From the NCBI GenBank assembly GCA_004375725.1, contig SOKS01000106.1, positions 1 to 36,500 on the forward strand: a stretch of 36,500 nt of DNA, given 5' to 3'. The notes beneath the pieces were generated by a model. It did not search any database. It was not told the DNA's origin and worked only from the letters and a program-made list of their open reading frames with translations. Origin of the DNA: Dehalococcoidia bacterium (GTDB lineage Bacteria; Chloroflexota; Dehalococcoidia; Dehalococcoidales; RBG-16-60-22). This document shows positions 24,829 to 30,224 of this stretch, piece after piece. The translations under genes and the position numbers were made by a program. Within the stretch, counting starts at the first letter, position 1. The number at the start of each line of letters is the position of its first letter.

Positions 24829-25452
24829 TTACTTCCCCCTCCTCGACTTCTTTATCAGCAGCAGGCCGTTTCGAGCTCCCGGTACGGCTCCACTGATCAG
24901 CAAGAGATTGCGCTCAGGGTCAGCCTGAAACACTTCGAGGTTGCGCGTTGTCACTCGCTTGTTTCCCATCTGGCCGGCCATACGCATTCCTTTGAGTACG
25001 CGTCCGGGCGAGGTACCGGCGCCGACGGAGCCCCGGGCGCGGTGCCGGTCGGATTGACCGTGCGTCTTGGGCCCACCGGCAAAATGATACCTTTTGACCA
25101 CGCCGGCAAAGCCTTTGCCCTTGGATAGGCCGGTGATATCAACCAGGTCACCCGATTTAAAAAGGCTGACATCCATCTTCTGTCCCTCTTCAATTTCCTT
25201 GATATCAGCCAGCCTGAATTCACGGAGATATTTAAAATGGCCAAGTTCCTTAAGGTGCCCGCGCTGCGATGAGTTAAGCCTTTTGGCTTCGCCAAAGCCG
25301 AGCTGAACCGCGTTATAGCCATCTTTTTCCGCCGTTTTAATGCGGGTAACGGTGCACGGCCCGGCCTCAATAGCGGTCACTACTGCCAGCATACCGTCTT
25401 CACGGAATGCCTGGGACATGCCCAATTTTTTACCGATAATTCCCTGTGCCAT
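24829..25452 (-). CDS. rplC: 50S ribosomal protein L3
   Basis: MAQGIIGKKLGMSQAF... and ...GKGFAGVVKRYHFAGGPKTHGQSDRHRARGS... Confidence 0.95.
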   Translation of the reverse strand: MAQGIIGKKLGMSQAFREDGMLAVVTAIEAGPCTVTRIKTAEKDGYNAVQLGFGEAKRLNSSQRGHLKELGHFKYLREFRLADIKEIEEGQKMDVSLFKSGDLVDITGLSKGKGFAGVVKRYHFAGGPKTHGQSDRHRARGSVGAGTSPGRVLKGMRMAGQMGNKRVTTRNLEVFQADPERNLLLISGAVPGARNGLLLIKKSRRGK

Positions 25453-25465
25453 CTTATATACTCTT

Positions 25466-25774
25466 CTATAACTTGATATCTATCTCCACTCCGGAAGGCA
25501 AGTTCAATCTGGTTAAAGCATCGATTGTCTTCGAAGTGGTCTCCAAAATGTCAATGATGCGCTTATGCGTCCGTATCTCAAATTGCTCCTGTGAGTCTTT
25601 ATCAATAAACGGGGAGCGGATAACACTGTACTTTTTTATATGTGTGGGCAACGGTACCGGCCCGACCACCACTGCTCCGGTGCGCTCCACGGCATCGACG
25701 ATCTGAGCCGCCGACTGGTCGACTATGCGGTGGTCAAACCCTTTCAGCTTGATGCGTATTGTCTGTTTAGGCAT
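25466..25774 (-). CDS. rpsJ: 30S ribosomal protein S10
   Basis: [22 protein letters not shown]...GPVPLPT... 102 aa. The ATG lies 1 nt after the fusA stop (TAAtATG). Confidence 0.96.
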
Positions 25775-25775
25775 A

Positions 25776-27854
25776 TTATTTCCCCACTGCCTGTTCGATT
25801 ATTTCTTCAGTCAATCCTGTCGGCAATTTTCTATACTGGTGGAATTCAAGCGAATGTGTGGCCCTGCCCTGAGTGAGTGACCTCAACCTGGTGGCATAGC
25901 CGAAGGTCTCGGCCAGAGGAATCAGGCATTGAATAACGTACACATCACCCTGGGCGTCAATATGCTCGATGTGTCCCCGCTTGGCATTAAGGTCACCGAT
26001 GATGTCTCCCAGGAACTGCTCTGGCGCGACCACTTCCAGCTTCATAATCGGCTCGAGGAGAACCGGTTTGGCTTTCCTGACGCCGTTTCTGAGGGCCAGA
26101 GAGCCGGCCATTTTGAAAGCAATCTCGGAAGAATCAACGTCGTGGTAACTGCCATCGTAGATGGTGGCTTTGATATCGACCACGGGATAACCGGCCAGAA
26201 CCCCGGTTTCCATAGCCTCTTTTATCCCCATCTCAACGGGGGGGACATATTGTCTGGGAATGACGCCACCCTTGAGGGAGTTAATAAACTGGAAACCACC
26301 GCCCCGGTTCATTGGCTCGAGTTCCAGCCATACGTGTCCGTACTGACCGTGCCCTCCCGACTGCCGCACAAATCTGCCCTCCACCTGGACCGGTGCGGAA
26401 ATCGTCTCCTTGTAGGCGACCCGTGGTTTGCCCACCTTGGCACCGACGCCGAATTCGCTTATCATCCGGTTGACGATGACCTCAAGGTGAAGTTCGCCCA
26501 TTCCAGAGATGATAGTCTGTCCCGTTTCCTCATTGTAGGTAACTTTGAAAGTGGGATCCTCTTCGGTCAGTTTCTGCAGGGCGGCGGTCATTTTATCCTG
26601 GTCGGCCCTGCTTTTGGGCTCAATGGAAATGGAGACAACCGGCTCGGGGAATCGGATTGATTCCAGCCGCACCGGCTGTGAAGTATCGCAAAGGGTGTCA
26701 CCGGTGAAGGTATTCTTTAAACCCAGAGTGGCGACGATGGATCCGGTGTCAGCCTCTTCTACCTCCTCACGGCGGTTGGCATGCATCAGGAGCAAGCGCC
26801 CGATGCGTTCCCGCTTGCCTGTGGTTGAGTTCCAAACCTGGCTTCCCGCTTTCATGATGCCGGAGTAGACCCTGAGGTAGACAAGCCTGCCGACAAACGG
26901 GTCGGAAACAACTTTGAAAGCAAGGGCGGAAAACGGGGCTTCATCGCTGACCGGGCGGGTGACCTCTGCTTCCGAGGTAGTATCGATCGCCAGCACCGGT
27001 GGCATATCAGAAGGGGAGGGGAGGTAACTGATAATAGCATCAAGGAGCGGTTGTACACCTTTATTTCGCAGGGCGCTGCCACAGAGAATGGGCACGCCTT
27101 GGTTCGCCAGAGTTATTTTGTGCAGTGCCTGTCTTATCATCGATGGGCTGATCTCATGGCTCTCAAGGTAGGCTTCCAGGATATGGTCGTCATGCTCGGC
27201 CAGCTTTTCAATCAGGGCGTGACGATATTCATCGCAGCGTTTCCGTTCTGATTCCGGAACGGCAGCTTCTTCTGGCTCTGAATCAGGCTTACCATCATAA
27301 TGCCAGACCTTGTTCTCGATGAGGTCGATGACGCCTTCAAATGATTCACCGCTGCCCAGAGGAATCTGGATGGGTAGCGGTTTCGCCTTCAAGCGTTTTT
27401 CAATCATGGAGATGGTACGTTTGAAATTGGCGCCTACGCGGTCCATCTTATTGATAAAGCAGATTCTGGGCACGTGATAACGGTCGGCCTGTCGCCAGAC
27501 CGTCTCTGACTGTGCCTCGACTCCAGCCACTCCGTCAAAGACCACCACGCCGCCGTCCAGCACCCTGAGGCTGCGCTCCACCTCGGCGGTGAAGTCTACA
27601 TGACCCGGCGTATCGATGATGTTGATGCGGTGGTCCTGCCAGTAGCAGGTGGTCGCGGCCGCAGTTATGGTGATACCACGCTGACGCTCCTGCTCCATCC
27701 AGTCCATTACCGCGGTACCGGTATCCACGTCTCCAATCTTGTAGGTACGACCGGTATAGTACAGTATCCGCTCGGTAACGGTGGTCTTGCCGGCGTCAAT
27801 GTGGGCAATAATCCCTATATTTCTGATTTTTTCTAAAGGAAAACTTCTCGGCAT
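25776..27854 (-). CDS. fusA: Translation elongation factor G
   Basis: G domain motifs [17 protein letters not shown] and NKMD, followed by domains II-V. I prefer ATG 27852-27854 ([15 protein letters not shown]..., the typical EF-G N-terminus). The ORF track starts 12 codons earlier at 27890, and that remains possible. Confidence 0.93.
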
Positions 27855-27918
27855 CGTTTTTACCTTTGCTGGATTCGGGTTCTTGGTCATAATCTTCGTG
27901 TTAATGATTGTTCACCTT

Positions 27919-28404: not shown

Positions 28405-28836
28405 TCAGGCTATTTCCGCCTTCTCTTTTACCATCTTGCTGCCGTATTTGCTGCGACCCTGCCGGCGGTTGGCGACGCCGCTGGTATCAAGCGCCCCGCG
28501 CACGATGTGATAGCGGACACCGGGTAAGTCCTTGACGCGTCCGCCGCGAATCAGCACCACCGAGTGTTCCTGCAGTTCATGACCCTCACCCGGGATGTAG
28601 GCCGTTACCTCCATTCCGTTGGTGAGCCTGACTCTGGCTATCTTGCGCAGCGCCGAATTGGGCTTCTTGGGCGTCATGGTCCTGACCTGGGTACAGACGC
28701 CCCTTTTCTGCGGCGAACCCTTGTACTCAATCATCCGGTTTTTCAGCGCATTGAAGGTAAAGCGAAGCGCCGGCGATTTGGTCTTCTTGATGCCCTTTTT
28801 TCGCCCTTTACGTATCAGCTGGTTGATAGTTGGCAA
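28405..28836 (-). CDS. rpsL: 30S ribosomal protein S12
   Basis: [13 protein letters not shown]... and ...[20 protein letters not shown]... TTG start at 28834-28836 with GGAGG at 28843-28847. Confidence 0.95.
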
Positions 28837-28958: not shown

Positions 28959-28988
28959 AGTTTACCACAAGTCAAGATTAATTGTCAA
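28959..28988 (-). promoter_or_regulatory. Candidate rpsL (str/S10/spc) operon promoter: TTGACA-N18-TGgTAAACT
   Basis: On the minus strand, TTGACA lies at 28983-28988 and an extended -10 TGGTAAACT at 28959-28967, with an 18-nt spacer. The TTG of the -35 hexamer lies inside direct repeat copy 1. Sequence match only. Confidence 0.45.
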
Positions 28989-29127
28989 ATAGCTACAAAC
29001 AGGCTTGGTGGAACTTATTCGCCGAGCAGGCGGTGCAGTCCTTCCCCATGCTTCCGGCACCACTGATAGATGACCATCAGGTCCCAGCCGATGCAGAAGT
29101 GGCGGACGCCCATCTCTATGAATTCCC
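28986..29127. repeat. Direct repeat copy 1 (142 bp, 100% identical to 30083-30224)
   Basis: Base-by-base comparison gives identity from caaatagctacaaac... to ...ctctatgaattccc. The flanks diverge immediately on both sides (ttgt|caaatag vs aatg|caaatag; gaattccc|ata vs gaattccc|ggg). Confidence 0.98.
29015..29127 (-). pseudogene. Orphan 3'-terminal fragment (last 37 codons + stop) of the HpcH-family aldolase gene
   Basis: Identical to 30112-30224 and encodes ...EFIEMGVRHFCIGWDLMVIYQWCRKHGEGLHRLLGE*. The rest of the gene is absent here. An in-frame ATG at 29156-29158 in the unique DNA creates a 47-codon chimeric ORF. Confidence 0.9.
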
Positions 29128-29318
29128 ATATAAAAATTGGGCAGATATTACCCGCCATAAACCGTCAAAACCTATTACCATATCGCACGTAGAACGTGGC
29201 ACTATGAGATTGCAAAAGACGCATATCGGCAGACCACGTAAGAGAAAACGAATTAGGATTACACCCCCCAAAACCACCGATTACACTAAAGGAAGTGAGG
29301 TTAAGGCGGTGAAATGAA

Positions 29319-29579
29319 TCAGACACCGTATTTATTGGTTAGGTCAAGCAGACCTCTCTTGCCAATACCTGTTTGGTCAGTGCTAAGTATGTCTTGCAGT
29401 GTGCCTTCAGGCAAAGAGGCACGTGTATCAGGGACAAATGTAACTCTAGTGCGGTTGGAGAATGCCTTTCTTAGCGTAATGCCGTGCTTTGTTTTCCTGC
29501 CAATAGTCCACCCATCCTTCTTAAGCAACTTGATTAGTTGCTTGCCTGTGATGGCAGGCAATTTTGTGTATTTAGGCAA
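29319..29579 (-). CDS. hicA: HicA-family (YcfA-like) mRNA interferase toxin
   Basis: 86 aa. LPAITGKQLIKLLKKDGWTIGRKTKHGITLRK...RVTFVPDTRASLPEGTLQDIL matches the HicA pattern (G+elikaLek.GF...R.kGSH......vtvP.h...l..GTL+sIL). TTG start at 29577-29579 overlaps the hicB stop by 8 nt. Confidence 0.8.
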   Translation of the reverse strand: MPKYTKLPAITGKQLIKLLKKDGWTIGRKTKHGITLRKAFSNRTRVTFVPDTRASLPEGTLQDILSTDQTGIGKRGLLDLTNKYGV

Positions 29580-29889
29580 CAGCAGTCAACTCACGAACAG
29601 ACTGGATGTATGGTTGGACGAAGGTTCCAGTACTAACGGGTTTAGCAATTGTAATATCGGATTTAGGTTTCACGTGATAGAATGTTACGTTACGCTCCTT
29701 CAAGAATCTCTCACATTCTCCTACATCCTCAAGAGTATTGAGATGGAGCAATACCGCTTCTTTTATTCTTTTCTCAGCTTCCGAGAGAGTACGCCCGAAT
29801 GTTCCTGTGCTAAGTTCTACACAACGGGCAATCCATCTTCTATCCTTTTTCTCAAATGCAAGCGTCAGAACTATATAGCCCTTATGCAC
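29572..29889 (-). CDS. hicB: HicB-like antitoxin (UPF0150/HicB N-terminal fold)
   Basis: HKGYIVLTLAFEKKDRRWIARCVELSTGTFGRTLSEAEKRIKEAVLLHLNTLEDVGE fits the HicB N-terminal domain pattern. I place the start at GTG 29887-29889, directly behind AAGGAGG (29892-29898). Alternative starts are ATG 29925 or the ORF-track start at 30006. Confidence 0.72.
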   Translation of the reverse strand: MHKGYIVLTLAFEKKDRRWIARCVELSTGTFGRTLSEAEKRIKEAVLLHLNTLEDVGECERFLKERNVTFYHVKPKSDITIAKPVSTGTFVQPYIQSVRELTAVA

Positions 29890-30044
29890 TGCCACCTCCT
29901 TTTTAGATATTTCTCTTTCCTGCATTCTATACTTTGGCGTGGTCTGTTTCGCCAATACTATTGTAACAGGTTGTACCAGTGTGATACAATTTTCCCCGTT
30001 TGTCAATCGCCCAAAGGAATTATTTTGCTACCATATGTAAGCGC

Positions 30045-30075
30045 ATTATATCAAGGATTAAAGAAGGGAAATCAA
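30045..30075 (-). promoter_or_regulatory. Candidate hicBA promoter with extended -10 (TTGATT-N19-TGaTATAAT)
   Basis: On the minus strand, a perfect TATAAT lies at 30045-30050 with TG at 30052-30053 and TTGATT at 30070-30075. It sits just inside the unique segment next to repeat copy 2. A second candidate is TTGTAT-N18-TACAAT, with its -10 at 29960-29965. Sequence match only. Confidence 0.4.
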
Positions 30076-30082
30076 CCAAATG

Positions 30083-30224
30083 CAAATAGCTACAAACAGG
30101 CTTGGTGGAACTTATTCGCCGAGCAGGCGGTGCAGTCCTTCCCCATGCTTCCGGCACCACTGATAGATGACCATCAGGTCCCAGCCGATGCAGAAGTGGC
30201 GGACGCCCATCTCTATGAATTCCC
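30083..30224. repeat. Direct repeat copy 2 (142 bp), overlapping the intact 3' end of the aldolase gene
   Basis: Identical to 28986-29127. Covers 29 nt downstream of the aldolase stop plus the last 113 nt of its CDS. Confidence 0.98.

Follow-up and report, generated by a model that had tools for sequence, protein, structure and literature searches.

A hicB-hicA toxin-antitoxin cassette within a 142-bp duplication of an aldolase gene end matches insertion with long target duplication in an uncultured Dehalococcoidia species

The 36,500-nt stretch of Dehalococcoidia DNA analyzed here (the window) contains an HpcH/HpaI-family aldolase gene (PF03328; 30112..30903, minus strand) followed by rpsL (28405..28836, minus strand), the first gene of a ribosomal protein cluster. 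Between the two lies a 955-bp foreign insert (29128..30082, minus strand), bracketed by two copies of a 142-nt direct repeat, which a repeat search found to be 100% identical at a spacing of 1097 nt, as the sequence-only reading had reported, and which form the sole long repeat pair in the whole window. Copy A (30083..30224, minus strand) is the native aldolase 3' end, made up of the last 113 nt of the gene (30112-30224) and 29 nt of intergenic DNA (30083-30111), and copy B (28986..29127, minus strand) is an orphan that repeats these 142 nt right next to the rpsL promoter region. The predicted rpsL promoter (28959..28988, minus strand) is a consensus match consisting of TTGACA, an 18-nt spacer and TAAACT preceded by TG, and its -35 hexamer straddles the end of copy B, in keeping with the earlier placement of the insertion immediately 5' of this promoter. 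Since the duplication takes in the stop codon of the aldolase gene and extends to the -35 region of rpsL, both the aldolase gene and the promoter are left intact, suggesting a low cost of insertion. An insertion directly before the promoter of the main ribosomal protein cluster is thus tolerable, the duplication preserving both neighbours. The aldolase sequence is encoded identically on 16 contigs.

The insert contains the hicB-hicA pair and a C-terminal transposase remnant of ∼63 codons, and differs in composition from its surroundings (GC 42.5%, compared with 55.0% for the window). No terminal inverted repeats were detected at its ends by the repeat search, and no recombinase gene is present in the insert or in the neighbouring genes, as had been noted from the sequence. 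The window contains no tRNA gene and no match to Rfam families. A terminator-like hairpin followed by a T-run (29140..29156, minus strand; consensus match) lies at the downstream end of the insert. All genes at the locus are on the minus strand; the transposase remnant is on the plus strand.

The hicB-like antitoxin gene (29572..29889, minus strand, GTG start) encodes a 105-aa protein and is also called at this length in L011 and L012; a longer ORF starting at 30006 is probably not used. It is followed, with an 8-nt overlap, by the hicA-like toxin gene (29319..29579, minus strand, TTG start), encoding an 86-aa protein. HicA matches Pfam HicA_toxin (PF07927) at 29.9 bits (gathering cut-off 27), and its top PDB sequence matches are the HicA entries 6g26 and 4c26 (E 0.03). 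An exact-protein look-up of the 86-aa HicA gave no match, and the TTG-start gene is left uncalled by gene callers in this species. Members of the HicA family are RNases, not DNases. HicB has no Pfam match above threshold (only DUF7387 at E 0.01), and neither protein has a match in NCBIfam. Several of the HicB homologues (n=86) are labelled 'RNase H-like HicB family nuclease' by JGI, and when a HicB family profile was compared with the PDB, three HicB entries ranked first (E 0.015-0.037). The AlphaFold model of HicB (pLDDT 80) has HicB 6g1c/6g1n as its best Foldseek match (probability 1.0, target-normalised TM-score 0.68), and the modelled C-terminal part is a single strand followed by disorder, with no Pfam match to an RHH or HTH DNA-binding domain. 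The HicB assignment, including the HicB N-terminal (partial RNase H-like) fold, is therefore made with moderate confidence. The cargo, judged from its sequence, is a HicB/HicA type II toxin-antitoxin pair as proposed earlier, with toxicity and neutralization as predicted activities. Upstream of hicB lies a non-coding 5' leader (29890..30082, minus strand) with a promoter-like TTGACA at 30006-30001, which is invariant in an alignment with four related cassettes; the relative L134 has the same leader, to within ∼47 nt of the left edge of the insert.

The remaining part of the insert (29128..29317, plus strand), earlier described as ∼190 bp of unassigned DNA, turned out to be the 3' end of a truncated DDE (rve-type) transposase gene. 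It is oriented convergently to hicA, and its truncation coincides exactly with the boundary between insert and copy B. Its DNA is 86% identical to the related contig L014, where it extends further upstream as ...LLLDGWLVHYNYLRPHDALDDKTPAELAGIDFPYKNWADITRH... and has a match to Pfam rve_3 (E 2.6e-7, 30.7 bits). The right junction thus appears not to be an element end, as it cuts through a transposase remnant that continues in L014. At this one junction, with L014 at 86% identity standing in for the donor, the donor-like and target sequences share the 5-nt microhomology GGGAA (7/8 positions in GGGAAnTC). The sequence-only reading had called for a search for a parent element carrying a recombinase. 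No true donor of the 955 bp was found, the closest relatives having 86-89% DNA identity (L014, L134, L026, L135), and the cassette has no match in plasmid, phage or IMG/VR collections.

An empty site had been predicted from the repeat structure, and at least eight conspecific contigs (98-99% identical; L001, L003-L010) have it, carrying a single 142-nt copy, with the aldolase gene followed by rpsL 178 nt on. On each of these contigs the BLAST segments have an overlap of exactly 142 nt, which fixes the limits of the insertion. The occupied site is found in four assemblies: the window, L002/L011, L012 and L013, the last of which, a Logan unitig (k=31) derived from a further run, spans both insert/repeat junctions. 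Copies A and B differ by 1 nt in L002/L011 (a SNP in copy B) and by 2 nt in L012 (in copy A), so that repeat-copy identity across occupied assemblies is 98.6-100%.

Between occupied strains the divergence of the insert is 0-0.21% (0-2 nt/955), compared with 1.3-3.4% for the flanks, which indicates that the insert is young and has crossed strain backgrounds, and bears out a recent event, one of the possibilities proposed earlier. The occupied strains do not form a clade. The window and L012 have a private haplotype in common, from 30829 to 28819. In L011 the insert lies on the common, empty-type haplotype, the switch lying no more than 207 nt from the insert on the upstream side and 309 nt on the downstream side. 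All sequences compared are metagenome assemblies or MAGs, and a 142-nt repeat is just the kind of place at which contigs from different strains can be joined into chimeras, so L011's haplotype switch could be an effect of assembly.

Cassettes closely related to this one (HicB 80-89% identical) occur at unrelated loci and not at the aldolase gene. Together with the deviant GC content, these unrelated contexts suggest a foreign origin. Flanking direct repeats surround 8 of 50 dereplicated related loci, compared with 0 of 296 shifted control windows (Fisher p = 1e-7), with lengths of 107, 100, 99, 64, 48, 37, 22 and 21 nt. The repeats are locus-specific, built from local gene ends or promoters, and their copies have diverged. 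The ends of the insert are not conserved among related cassettes, and the repeat/insert junctions share no k-mer beyond null expectation that would indicate a common motif or core. Many relatives have an inverted hicA that converges on hicB. A second pair of occupied and empty sites was not obtained for these loci: the flank gene of L075 led to L136, which is not syntenic, and the flank gene of L099 has no close relative. Because the empty site was obtained only at the aldolase-rpsL locus, the term 'target duplication' is applied to the relatives on the basis of their repeat content. This family-wide excess of long, locus-specific flanking repeats supports the case made from the single locus.

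We favour, as the probable explanation, that a horizontally acquired hicB-hicA cassette and a dead transposase fragment were inserted without a recombinase of their own, as an insertion with long target duplication. In this pathway, the cassette, together with a fragment of a neighbouring transposase gene, would have entered the chromosome of one lineage of the uncultured Dehalococcoidia species, and the insertion event would have duplicated 142 bp of the target. The duplication may have arisen through illegitimate, microhomology-guided joining of the foreign DNA, either by a replication template switch in which the chromosome was re-entered 142 nt behind the exit point, or by joining of the two ends to sister chromosomes at staggered positions. 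Homologous recombination, with the flanks or the 142-bp repeats as the homology, could then have spread the unit among conspecific strains, perhaps also by way of a 1097-bp circle that looped out and re-entered in Campbell fashion. Post-segregational toxicity of HicA would select against deletion between the repeats, by which the insert would otherwise soon be lost. Such counter-selection might account for the finding that the cargo within long target duplications consists of addiction modules, namely restriction-modification systems and, in the present case, a toxin-antitoxin pair.

A more far-reaching version of this proposal, which we put forward tentatively as a possibility, is that the hicB-hicA family is a minimal mobile addiction element without an enzyme of its own. 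Its long and variable target duplications would be made by host replication or repair; it would be retained since HicA punishes repeat-mediated loss; and it would loop out as a ∼1 kb circle or undergo tandem amplification, re-entering conspecific genomes by homologous recombination. Kobayashi's group has reportedly proposed that restriction-modification systems have a life cycle like that of a virus. If the proposal holds, the hicB-hicA family would have such a life cycle without the need for a DNA-cleaving cargo, and addiction modules would in general be marked by long target duplication.

Campbell-type integration by homologous recombination is rather unlikely as the explanation of the locus, though more probable than the other alternatives. 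Here a ∼1.1-kb circle carrying hicBA and one 142-bp aldolase segment would recombine with the chromosomal copy through the RecA-type machinery of the host, yielding exactly the structure observed, and 142 bp of perfect homology is sufficient in length for RecA-type recombination. In L011 the haplotype is of the empty type apart from the insert, with no crossover outside the repeat regions, which is consistent with this route, as is the related cassette L061, a 934-bp closed cycle comprising the cassette and one host-like segment, with 99-nt identical ends. However, L011 may be chimeric, L061 may reflect a tandem array or a loop in the assembly graph, and reads shorter than 142 nt cannot separate the circle junction from the chromosomal arrangement. 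The circle must, moreover, already hold host sequence, so the model explains spread from strain to strain and not the founding event.

The sequence-only reading had favoured a CIME-like or decayed site-specific mini-element, in which the repeats are attL and attR and the aldolase 3' end is the target of a tyrosine or serine recombinase provided in trans. The regeneration of the 3' end of the target gene, as with many integrative elements, and the precise empty sites are features that such an element would leave, and the insert's occurrence on two haplotypes of the flanks, which change over at the repeats or close to them, could mean independent integrations. The absence of a recombinase from the insert and its neighbourhood argues against it, as do the closely related cassettes elsewhere, which have different repeats or none. 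The repeats, from 21 to 142 nt, have no common core, and the ends are not conserved, one of them lying at a microhomology inside the truncated transposase gene. With no tRNA at the locus, and the cassette missing from phage, plasmid and IMG/VR records, the attL/attR interpretation was not borne out and is improbable.

Less probable still is an ancestral insert, or old fixed duplication, with the empty sites arising as secondary deletions. Recombination between the 142-bp direct repeats would recreate the empty allele exactly, but 12 related species have the same short aldolase-rpsL gap at this conserved junction and lack the insert, and the foreign GC content, the near-identity of the insert between strains with diverged flanks and the 98.6-100% identity of the repeats all argue against great age. 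An assembly artefact, by chimeric join or false duplication, had been raised as a concern; the window and all its relatives are metagenome-derived, but an artefact has almost no probability, as both junctions are common to three independent assemblies from different projects, the unitig from a further run covers both, the copies differ by 1-2 nt in two assemblies, and related loci have diverged repeat copies.

Other candidates were set aside. A transposon or integron cassette was rejected in view of the lack of terminal inverted repeats, a duplication of 142 bp far beyond any fixed transposase stagger, and a transposase present only as a truncated remnant. An att site was rejected for want of a junction motif or core above null, and tRNA-linked integration because no tRNA was found.

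Insertion with long target duplication is known from restriction-modification systems (Nobusato, Uchiyama, Ohashi & Kobayashi 2000, Gene 259:99; Furuta, Abe & Kobayashi 2010, PMC2853133). The hallmarks of this class are an empty site in a relative, a repeat of more than 30 bp, the absence of a mobility gene, repeats spanning start or stop codons, and deviant GC content (PMC2853133; PMC3874152). The criteria of Furuta 2010 also include repeats that align with one copy in the empty genome and are variable in length, an insert of less than 20 kb, and the absence of a tRNA-type att site, and restriction-modification cargo was the search criterion of the published surveys (PMC2853133). All of these features except the restriction-modification cargo are found at the hicBA locus, which thus matches a long-target-duplication insertion with a different cargo, an RNase-type toxin-antitoxin pair, in a mode of insertion that is rare, mechanistically unsolved and previously associated mainly with restriction-modification. 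No description of a classical type II toxin-antitoxin pair inserted with long target duplication emerged from the literature searched. According to a published suggestion, the cargo itself must break DNA for the mechanism to work, which cannot hold here, where the toxin family cleaves RNA. The RNase, not DNase, nature of HicA makes addiction, or a host repair or replication pathway, a likelier common feature than DNA cutting by the cargo. The movement of toxin-antitoxin systems without plasmids, phages or integrons is largely unexplained, and here occupied and empty alleles are available inside one species. With a type II toxin-antitoxin pair joining restriction-modification systems in one unexplained insertion class, a vague observation of 25 years' standing becomes testable.

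Among known systems, the locus most resembles the long-target-duplication insertions, with a small addiction-type unit lacking a recombinase, repeats of tens to hundreds of bp that vary with the locus and are over-represented in the gene family, one copy in the relative with the empty site, a spanned stop codon with the target gene intact, and deviant GC content. It differs from the published cases in its cargo, HicB/HicA with a toxin of an RNA-cleaving family instead of a restriction enzyme, and in its host, the Dehalococcoidia (Chloroflexota) not being represented among the published cases consulted. With integrative elements (those using tRNA or protein-gene att sites, CIMEs and mobilisable islands) it shares direct repeats that copy the 3' end of the target and precise empty sites, but it lacks an integrase, a conserved att core, a fixed target among relatives and conserved ends. 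Campbell-type integration leaves the same final homology-insert-homology structure and could account for the strain-to-strain spread and for L061, but as a founding event it would require pre-existing host homology in the incoming DNA. The cassette itself resembles canonical HicAB of Burkholderia pseudomallei (6g1c, 6g1n, 6g26) in its HicA_toxin domain, its modelled HicB N-terminal fold, its overlapping co-oriented genes and its own putative promoter. It departs from canonical HicAB in having the antitoxin gene first, a HicB of only 105 aa without a recognisable RHH or HTH domain, weak similarity to characterised members (E ∼0.02), and an inverted hicA in many relatives.

The locus is a recent insertion of foreign DNA, made with a 142-bp target duplication and carrying no recombinase, that is polymorphic in the species and follows a pattern recurring in its cassette family. 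It belongs to an uncultured bacterium of the Dehalococcoidia (Dehalococcoidales). All genes of the insert region lie on the minus strand: in reading order, lipB (32494-31784), lipA (31836-30949) and a HpcH/HpaI-family aldolase gene (30903-30112) directly before the insert, and after it rpsL (28836-28405), followed by rpsG, fusA and the ribosomal protein cluster. A repeat search of the 36.5-kb window yielded a 142-nt perfect direct repeat (28986-29127 and 30083-30224, spacing 1097 nt) and no second long repeat. The copy at 30083-30224 consists of the 3'-terminal 113 nt of the aldolase gene and 29 nt beyond its stop, while that at 28986-29127 is an orphan; the sequence-only reading was accurate on the repeat limits, the aldolase-3'-end content and the orphan left copy, judged by the repeat search and gene calls. 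The duplicated 142 bp run from within the aldolase gene and take in three bases at the start of the predicted rpsL promoter (28988-28959, minus strand; TTGACA, an 18-nt spacer, and TAAACT after TG), so that the aldolase gene stays intact on the upstream side of the insert and the predicted promoter is rebuilt on the downstream side. This promoter and the terminator-like hairpin that closes the insert (29156-29140, minus strand) are predictions from consensus matches, which are no proof of function. A 47-aa chimeric ORF (29015-29158, minus strand), annotated as a gene in the occupied contigs L011 and L012, begins in the insert, runs into the orphan aldolase fragment and ends as the aldolase C-terminus; it probably arose incidentally from the duplication. 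Further along, rpsJ and rplC come immediately after fusA, and tuf is absent from between them (24829-27890), in this species as in its relatives.

The insert (29128-30082, 955 bp) has a GC content of 42.5%, compared with 55.0% for the window. In minus-strand reading it opens with a 193-nt non-coding leader containing a TTGACA (30006-30001) that is invariant among the related cassettes compared, followed by hicB (29889-29572, 105 aa) and hicA (29579-29319, 86 aa), which overlap by 8 nt. The HicBA assignment made from sequence alone is supported by profile and fold matches. HicA matches Pfam HicA_toxin (29.9 bits, threshold 27), and its best PDB matches are HicA proteins. For HicB, a homology search returned 86 homologues, several labelled "RNase H-like HicB family nuclease" by JGI; three HicB crystal structures rank top when the family profile is compared with the PDB (E 0.015-0.037), and the best folds for its AlphaFold model (pLDDT 80) are the HicB structures 6g1c and 6g1n (match probability 1.0). 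The remaining ~190 nt (29128-29317, plus strand), present as first described, had been called unassigned and can now be assigned to the C-terminal tail of a DDE transposase (translation PYKNWADITRHKPSKPITISHVERGTMRLQKTHIGRPRKRKR...): in the related contig L014 the same frame extends upstream (...LLLDGWLVHYNYLRPHDALDDKTPAELAGIDF-PYKNWADITRH...), and this upstream stretch matches Pfam rve_3 (E 2.6e-7). The cassette therefore took with it a defunct fragment of an insertion sequence that had lain beside it, and the insert contains no working mobility gene.

An exact-protein look-up of the aldolase matched 16 contigs. Among the ten matches listed, eight (L001, L003-L008, L010) carry the empty site that had been predicted, with one 142-nt copy; they are 98-99% identical to the window, and the distance from aldolase stop to rpsL start is 178 nt, exactly 1097 bp less than in the window. 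In a further contig, L009 (GCA_004196295.1, SDBS01121816.1), the 3' end falls exactly on the last base of the repeat (window 30083), an end point that may reflect assembly-graph branching from occupied and empty alleles coexisting in one sample. In 12 related species (aldolase 74-90% identical), the aldolase gene adjoins rpsL across an equally short spacer that holds no insert, and the empty state is ancestral. The occupied allele is present in the window, L002/L011 (ERZ23486233), L012 (GCA_030588685.1) and L013, a k=31 Logan unitig in which 30 nt of repeat end precede the 955-bp insert and 30 nt of repeat start follow it. Mismatches between the two copies of the repeat number 1 nt in L011 and 2 nt in L012, and the duplication is therefore real and not a product of assembly. 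In L012 (4540-4681; window 30170-30171) the functional aldolase copy has a private GT-to-AC change (V245T) and the orphan copy keeps the common sequence; the copies are thus not being homogenised in this strain.

Across its 955 positions the insert shows 0-2 differences between the three occupied assemblies, and their flanks differ by 1.3-3.4%; together with the existence of the empty site, this bears out the earlier proposal of a recent insertion. The occupied strains are not mutual closest relatives, L011 being nearer to the empty-site contig L001 than to the window or L012. Tabulated variable sites give the window and L012 a haplotype around the insert, from 30829 to 28819, that is private to these two. 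The insert of L011, with two SNPs that are both also found in L013, sits on the common empty-type haplotype, and the switch falls no more than 207 nt before and 309 nt after the insert, within the repeats or adjacent to them. This pattern would mean either that the unit crossed strain backgrounds by recombination near or within the repeats, or that the L011 assembly is a chimera of strains, joined by way of the 142-nt repeat.

Related cassettes occupy different sites. They lie between unrelated genes in L014 (HicB 89% identical), after another gene in L134 (87%), between a 345-aa ORF and the uvrB promoter in L026 (82%), and between a GyrI-like gene and a phosphoribosyltransferase gene in L016-L025 (80%). 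The end points of homologous DNA vary by locus: L134 has the leader in common with the window insert and not the transposase remnant, and L014 a longer piece of the remnant and not the leader. Comparison of the donor-like L014 (...TTATAAGGGAAGTCTATCC), the target (...AAAGCCCGGGAATTCATAG) and the product (...TTATATGGGAATTCATAG) places the right join inside a common GGGAA (7/8 positions of GGGAAnTC), within the transposase remnant. For the right junction, with L014 as donor-like relative, this appears to be the signature of an illegitimate, microhomology-guided join and not of an element end. No motif shared above chance was found at insert ends or repeat/insert junctions across related loci, and searches of the window gave neither a tRNA nor a match to any known RNA family. 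The sequence-only reading of the repeats as att sites of a CIME-like unit is rejected, and was wrong on its main point, because the relatives have unrelated loci, variable ends and different repeats with no common motif, the window has no tRNA, the insert and its neighbouring genes include no recombinase, and the right junction falls inside a gene remnant.

The pattern of flanking repeats was followed in 80 metagenome loci with HicB relatives by matching the 600 nt that precede hicB against the 600 nt that follow hicA; dereplication gave 50 testable loci. Flanking direct repeats scored at least 18 in 8/50 loci and at least 30 in 4/50, compared with 0/296 shifted pseudo-cassettes on the same contigs (Fisher p = 1.1e-7); the control maxima were 14 (inverted orientation) and 25 (mismatched locus). 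The repeats measure 107 nt with 5 mismatches in L075 (a gene 3' end and the next promoter), ~112 nt in L124 (120-1299), 99 nt in L061, 64-74 nt in L099 (a ribosome-binding site and the first 16 codons of a gene), 48 nt in L069, 37 nt in L126, 22 nt in L026 (the -35 region of the uvrB promoter) and 21 nt in L132. They are made of local host sequence and differ at each locus. From this content we infer that they are target duplications, the empty site having been found for the window locus only. The counts are evidence that, at the sequence level, the whole cassette family tends toward flanking by such repeats.

Several loci show further features. In L124 (120-1299), the upstream repeat copy is preceded by a degenerate hicA-start fragment (ATGAAATAT...), a hint that cassette units once stood here in tandem and were in part deleted. 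L061 (1-1033) is a 1033-nt contig with identical 99-nt ends, equivalent to a 934-bp closed cycle of the cassette and one host-like promoter/gene-start segment; its origin could lie in excision as a circle, in amplification in tandem or in a loop of the assembly graph. Beside hicBA in L026 (1475-1862), an unrelated 80-aa ORF (1526-1768) is flanked by a 34-nt direct repeat (91% identical) that duplicates the ruvA 3' end, apparently another small insertion that duplicated its target, close to the first. Type II toxin-antitoxin pairs normally form one operon, and convergent hicA/hicB genes are unusual. In L087 (2989-3569), hicA is on the opposite strand and converges on hicB, as in L055, L057, L062-L064, L067-L069 and ~40 other loci; this arrangement occurs in more than half of the metagenome relatives (HicB 52-65% identical), with gene ends 2-12 nt apart.

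Host replication or repair would have produced the duplication. In one scenario, a nascent strand departed from the chromosome 29 nt beyond the aldolase stop, used the foreign DNA as template and returned to the chromosome 142 nt behind its exit; in another, both ends of a fragment were joined to sister chromosomes at staggered points. Later spread between strains would have used homologous recombination via the flanks or repeats. A 1097-bp loop-out circle re-entering by single crossover would suffice for this, and the Campbell-type step considered earlier is possible as a route of spread. The 934-bp cycle of L061 hints at loop-out circles or tandem arrays. The 142-bp direct repeats should readily delete the insert, and stable HicA with labile HicB would penalise its loss; such a penalty would explain addiction modules as cargo of long duplications. 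The HicA family are mRNA interferases, and DNA breakage by the cargo is therefore unlikely as the common factor.

"Insertion with long target duplication" was named by Kobayashi's group, with cases in Helicobacter pylori (Nobusato et al. 2000, Gene 259:99), and generalised as a class by Furuta, Abe and Kobayashi 2010 (PMC2853133). In the latter account the insert is <20 kb, without another mobile element and deviant in GC, and the duplication is >30 bp and corresponds to one copy in a relative whose site is empty; the repeats often extend over a start or stop codon, which keeps the target gene whole. Flanking repeats were in significant excess around the gene class, and a life cycle of insertion, amplification via the repeats and release was proposed. 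Among papers in the library searched that name both this insertion class and "toxin-antitoxin", none was found to describe a classical toxin-antitoxin pair inserted with long target duplication; most concern, by title and abstract, restriction-modification systems or DNA methyltransferases. The window locus has all the structural features of the class and differs from the published cases in its cargo, HicBA; the insertion class is already known, and the cargo is the novelty.
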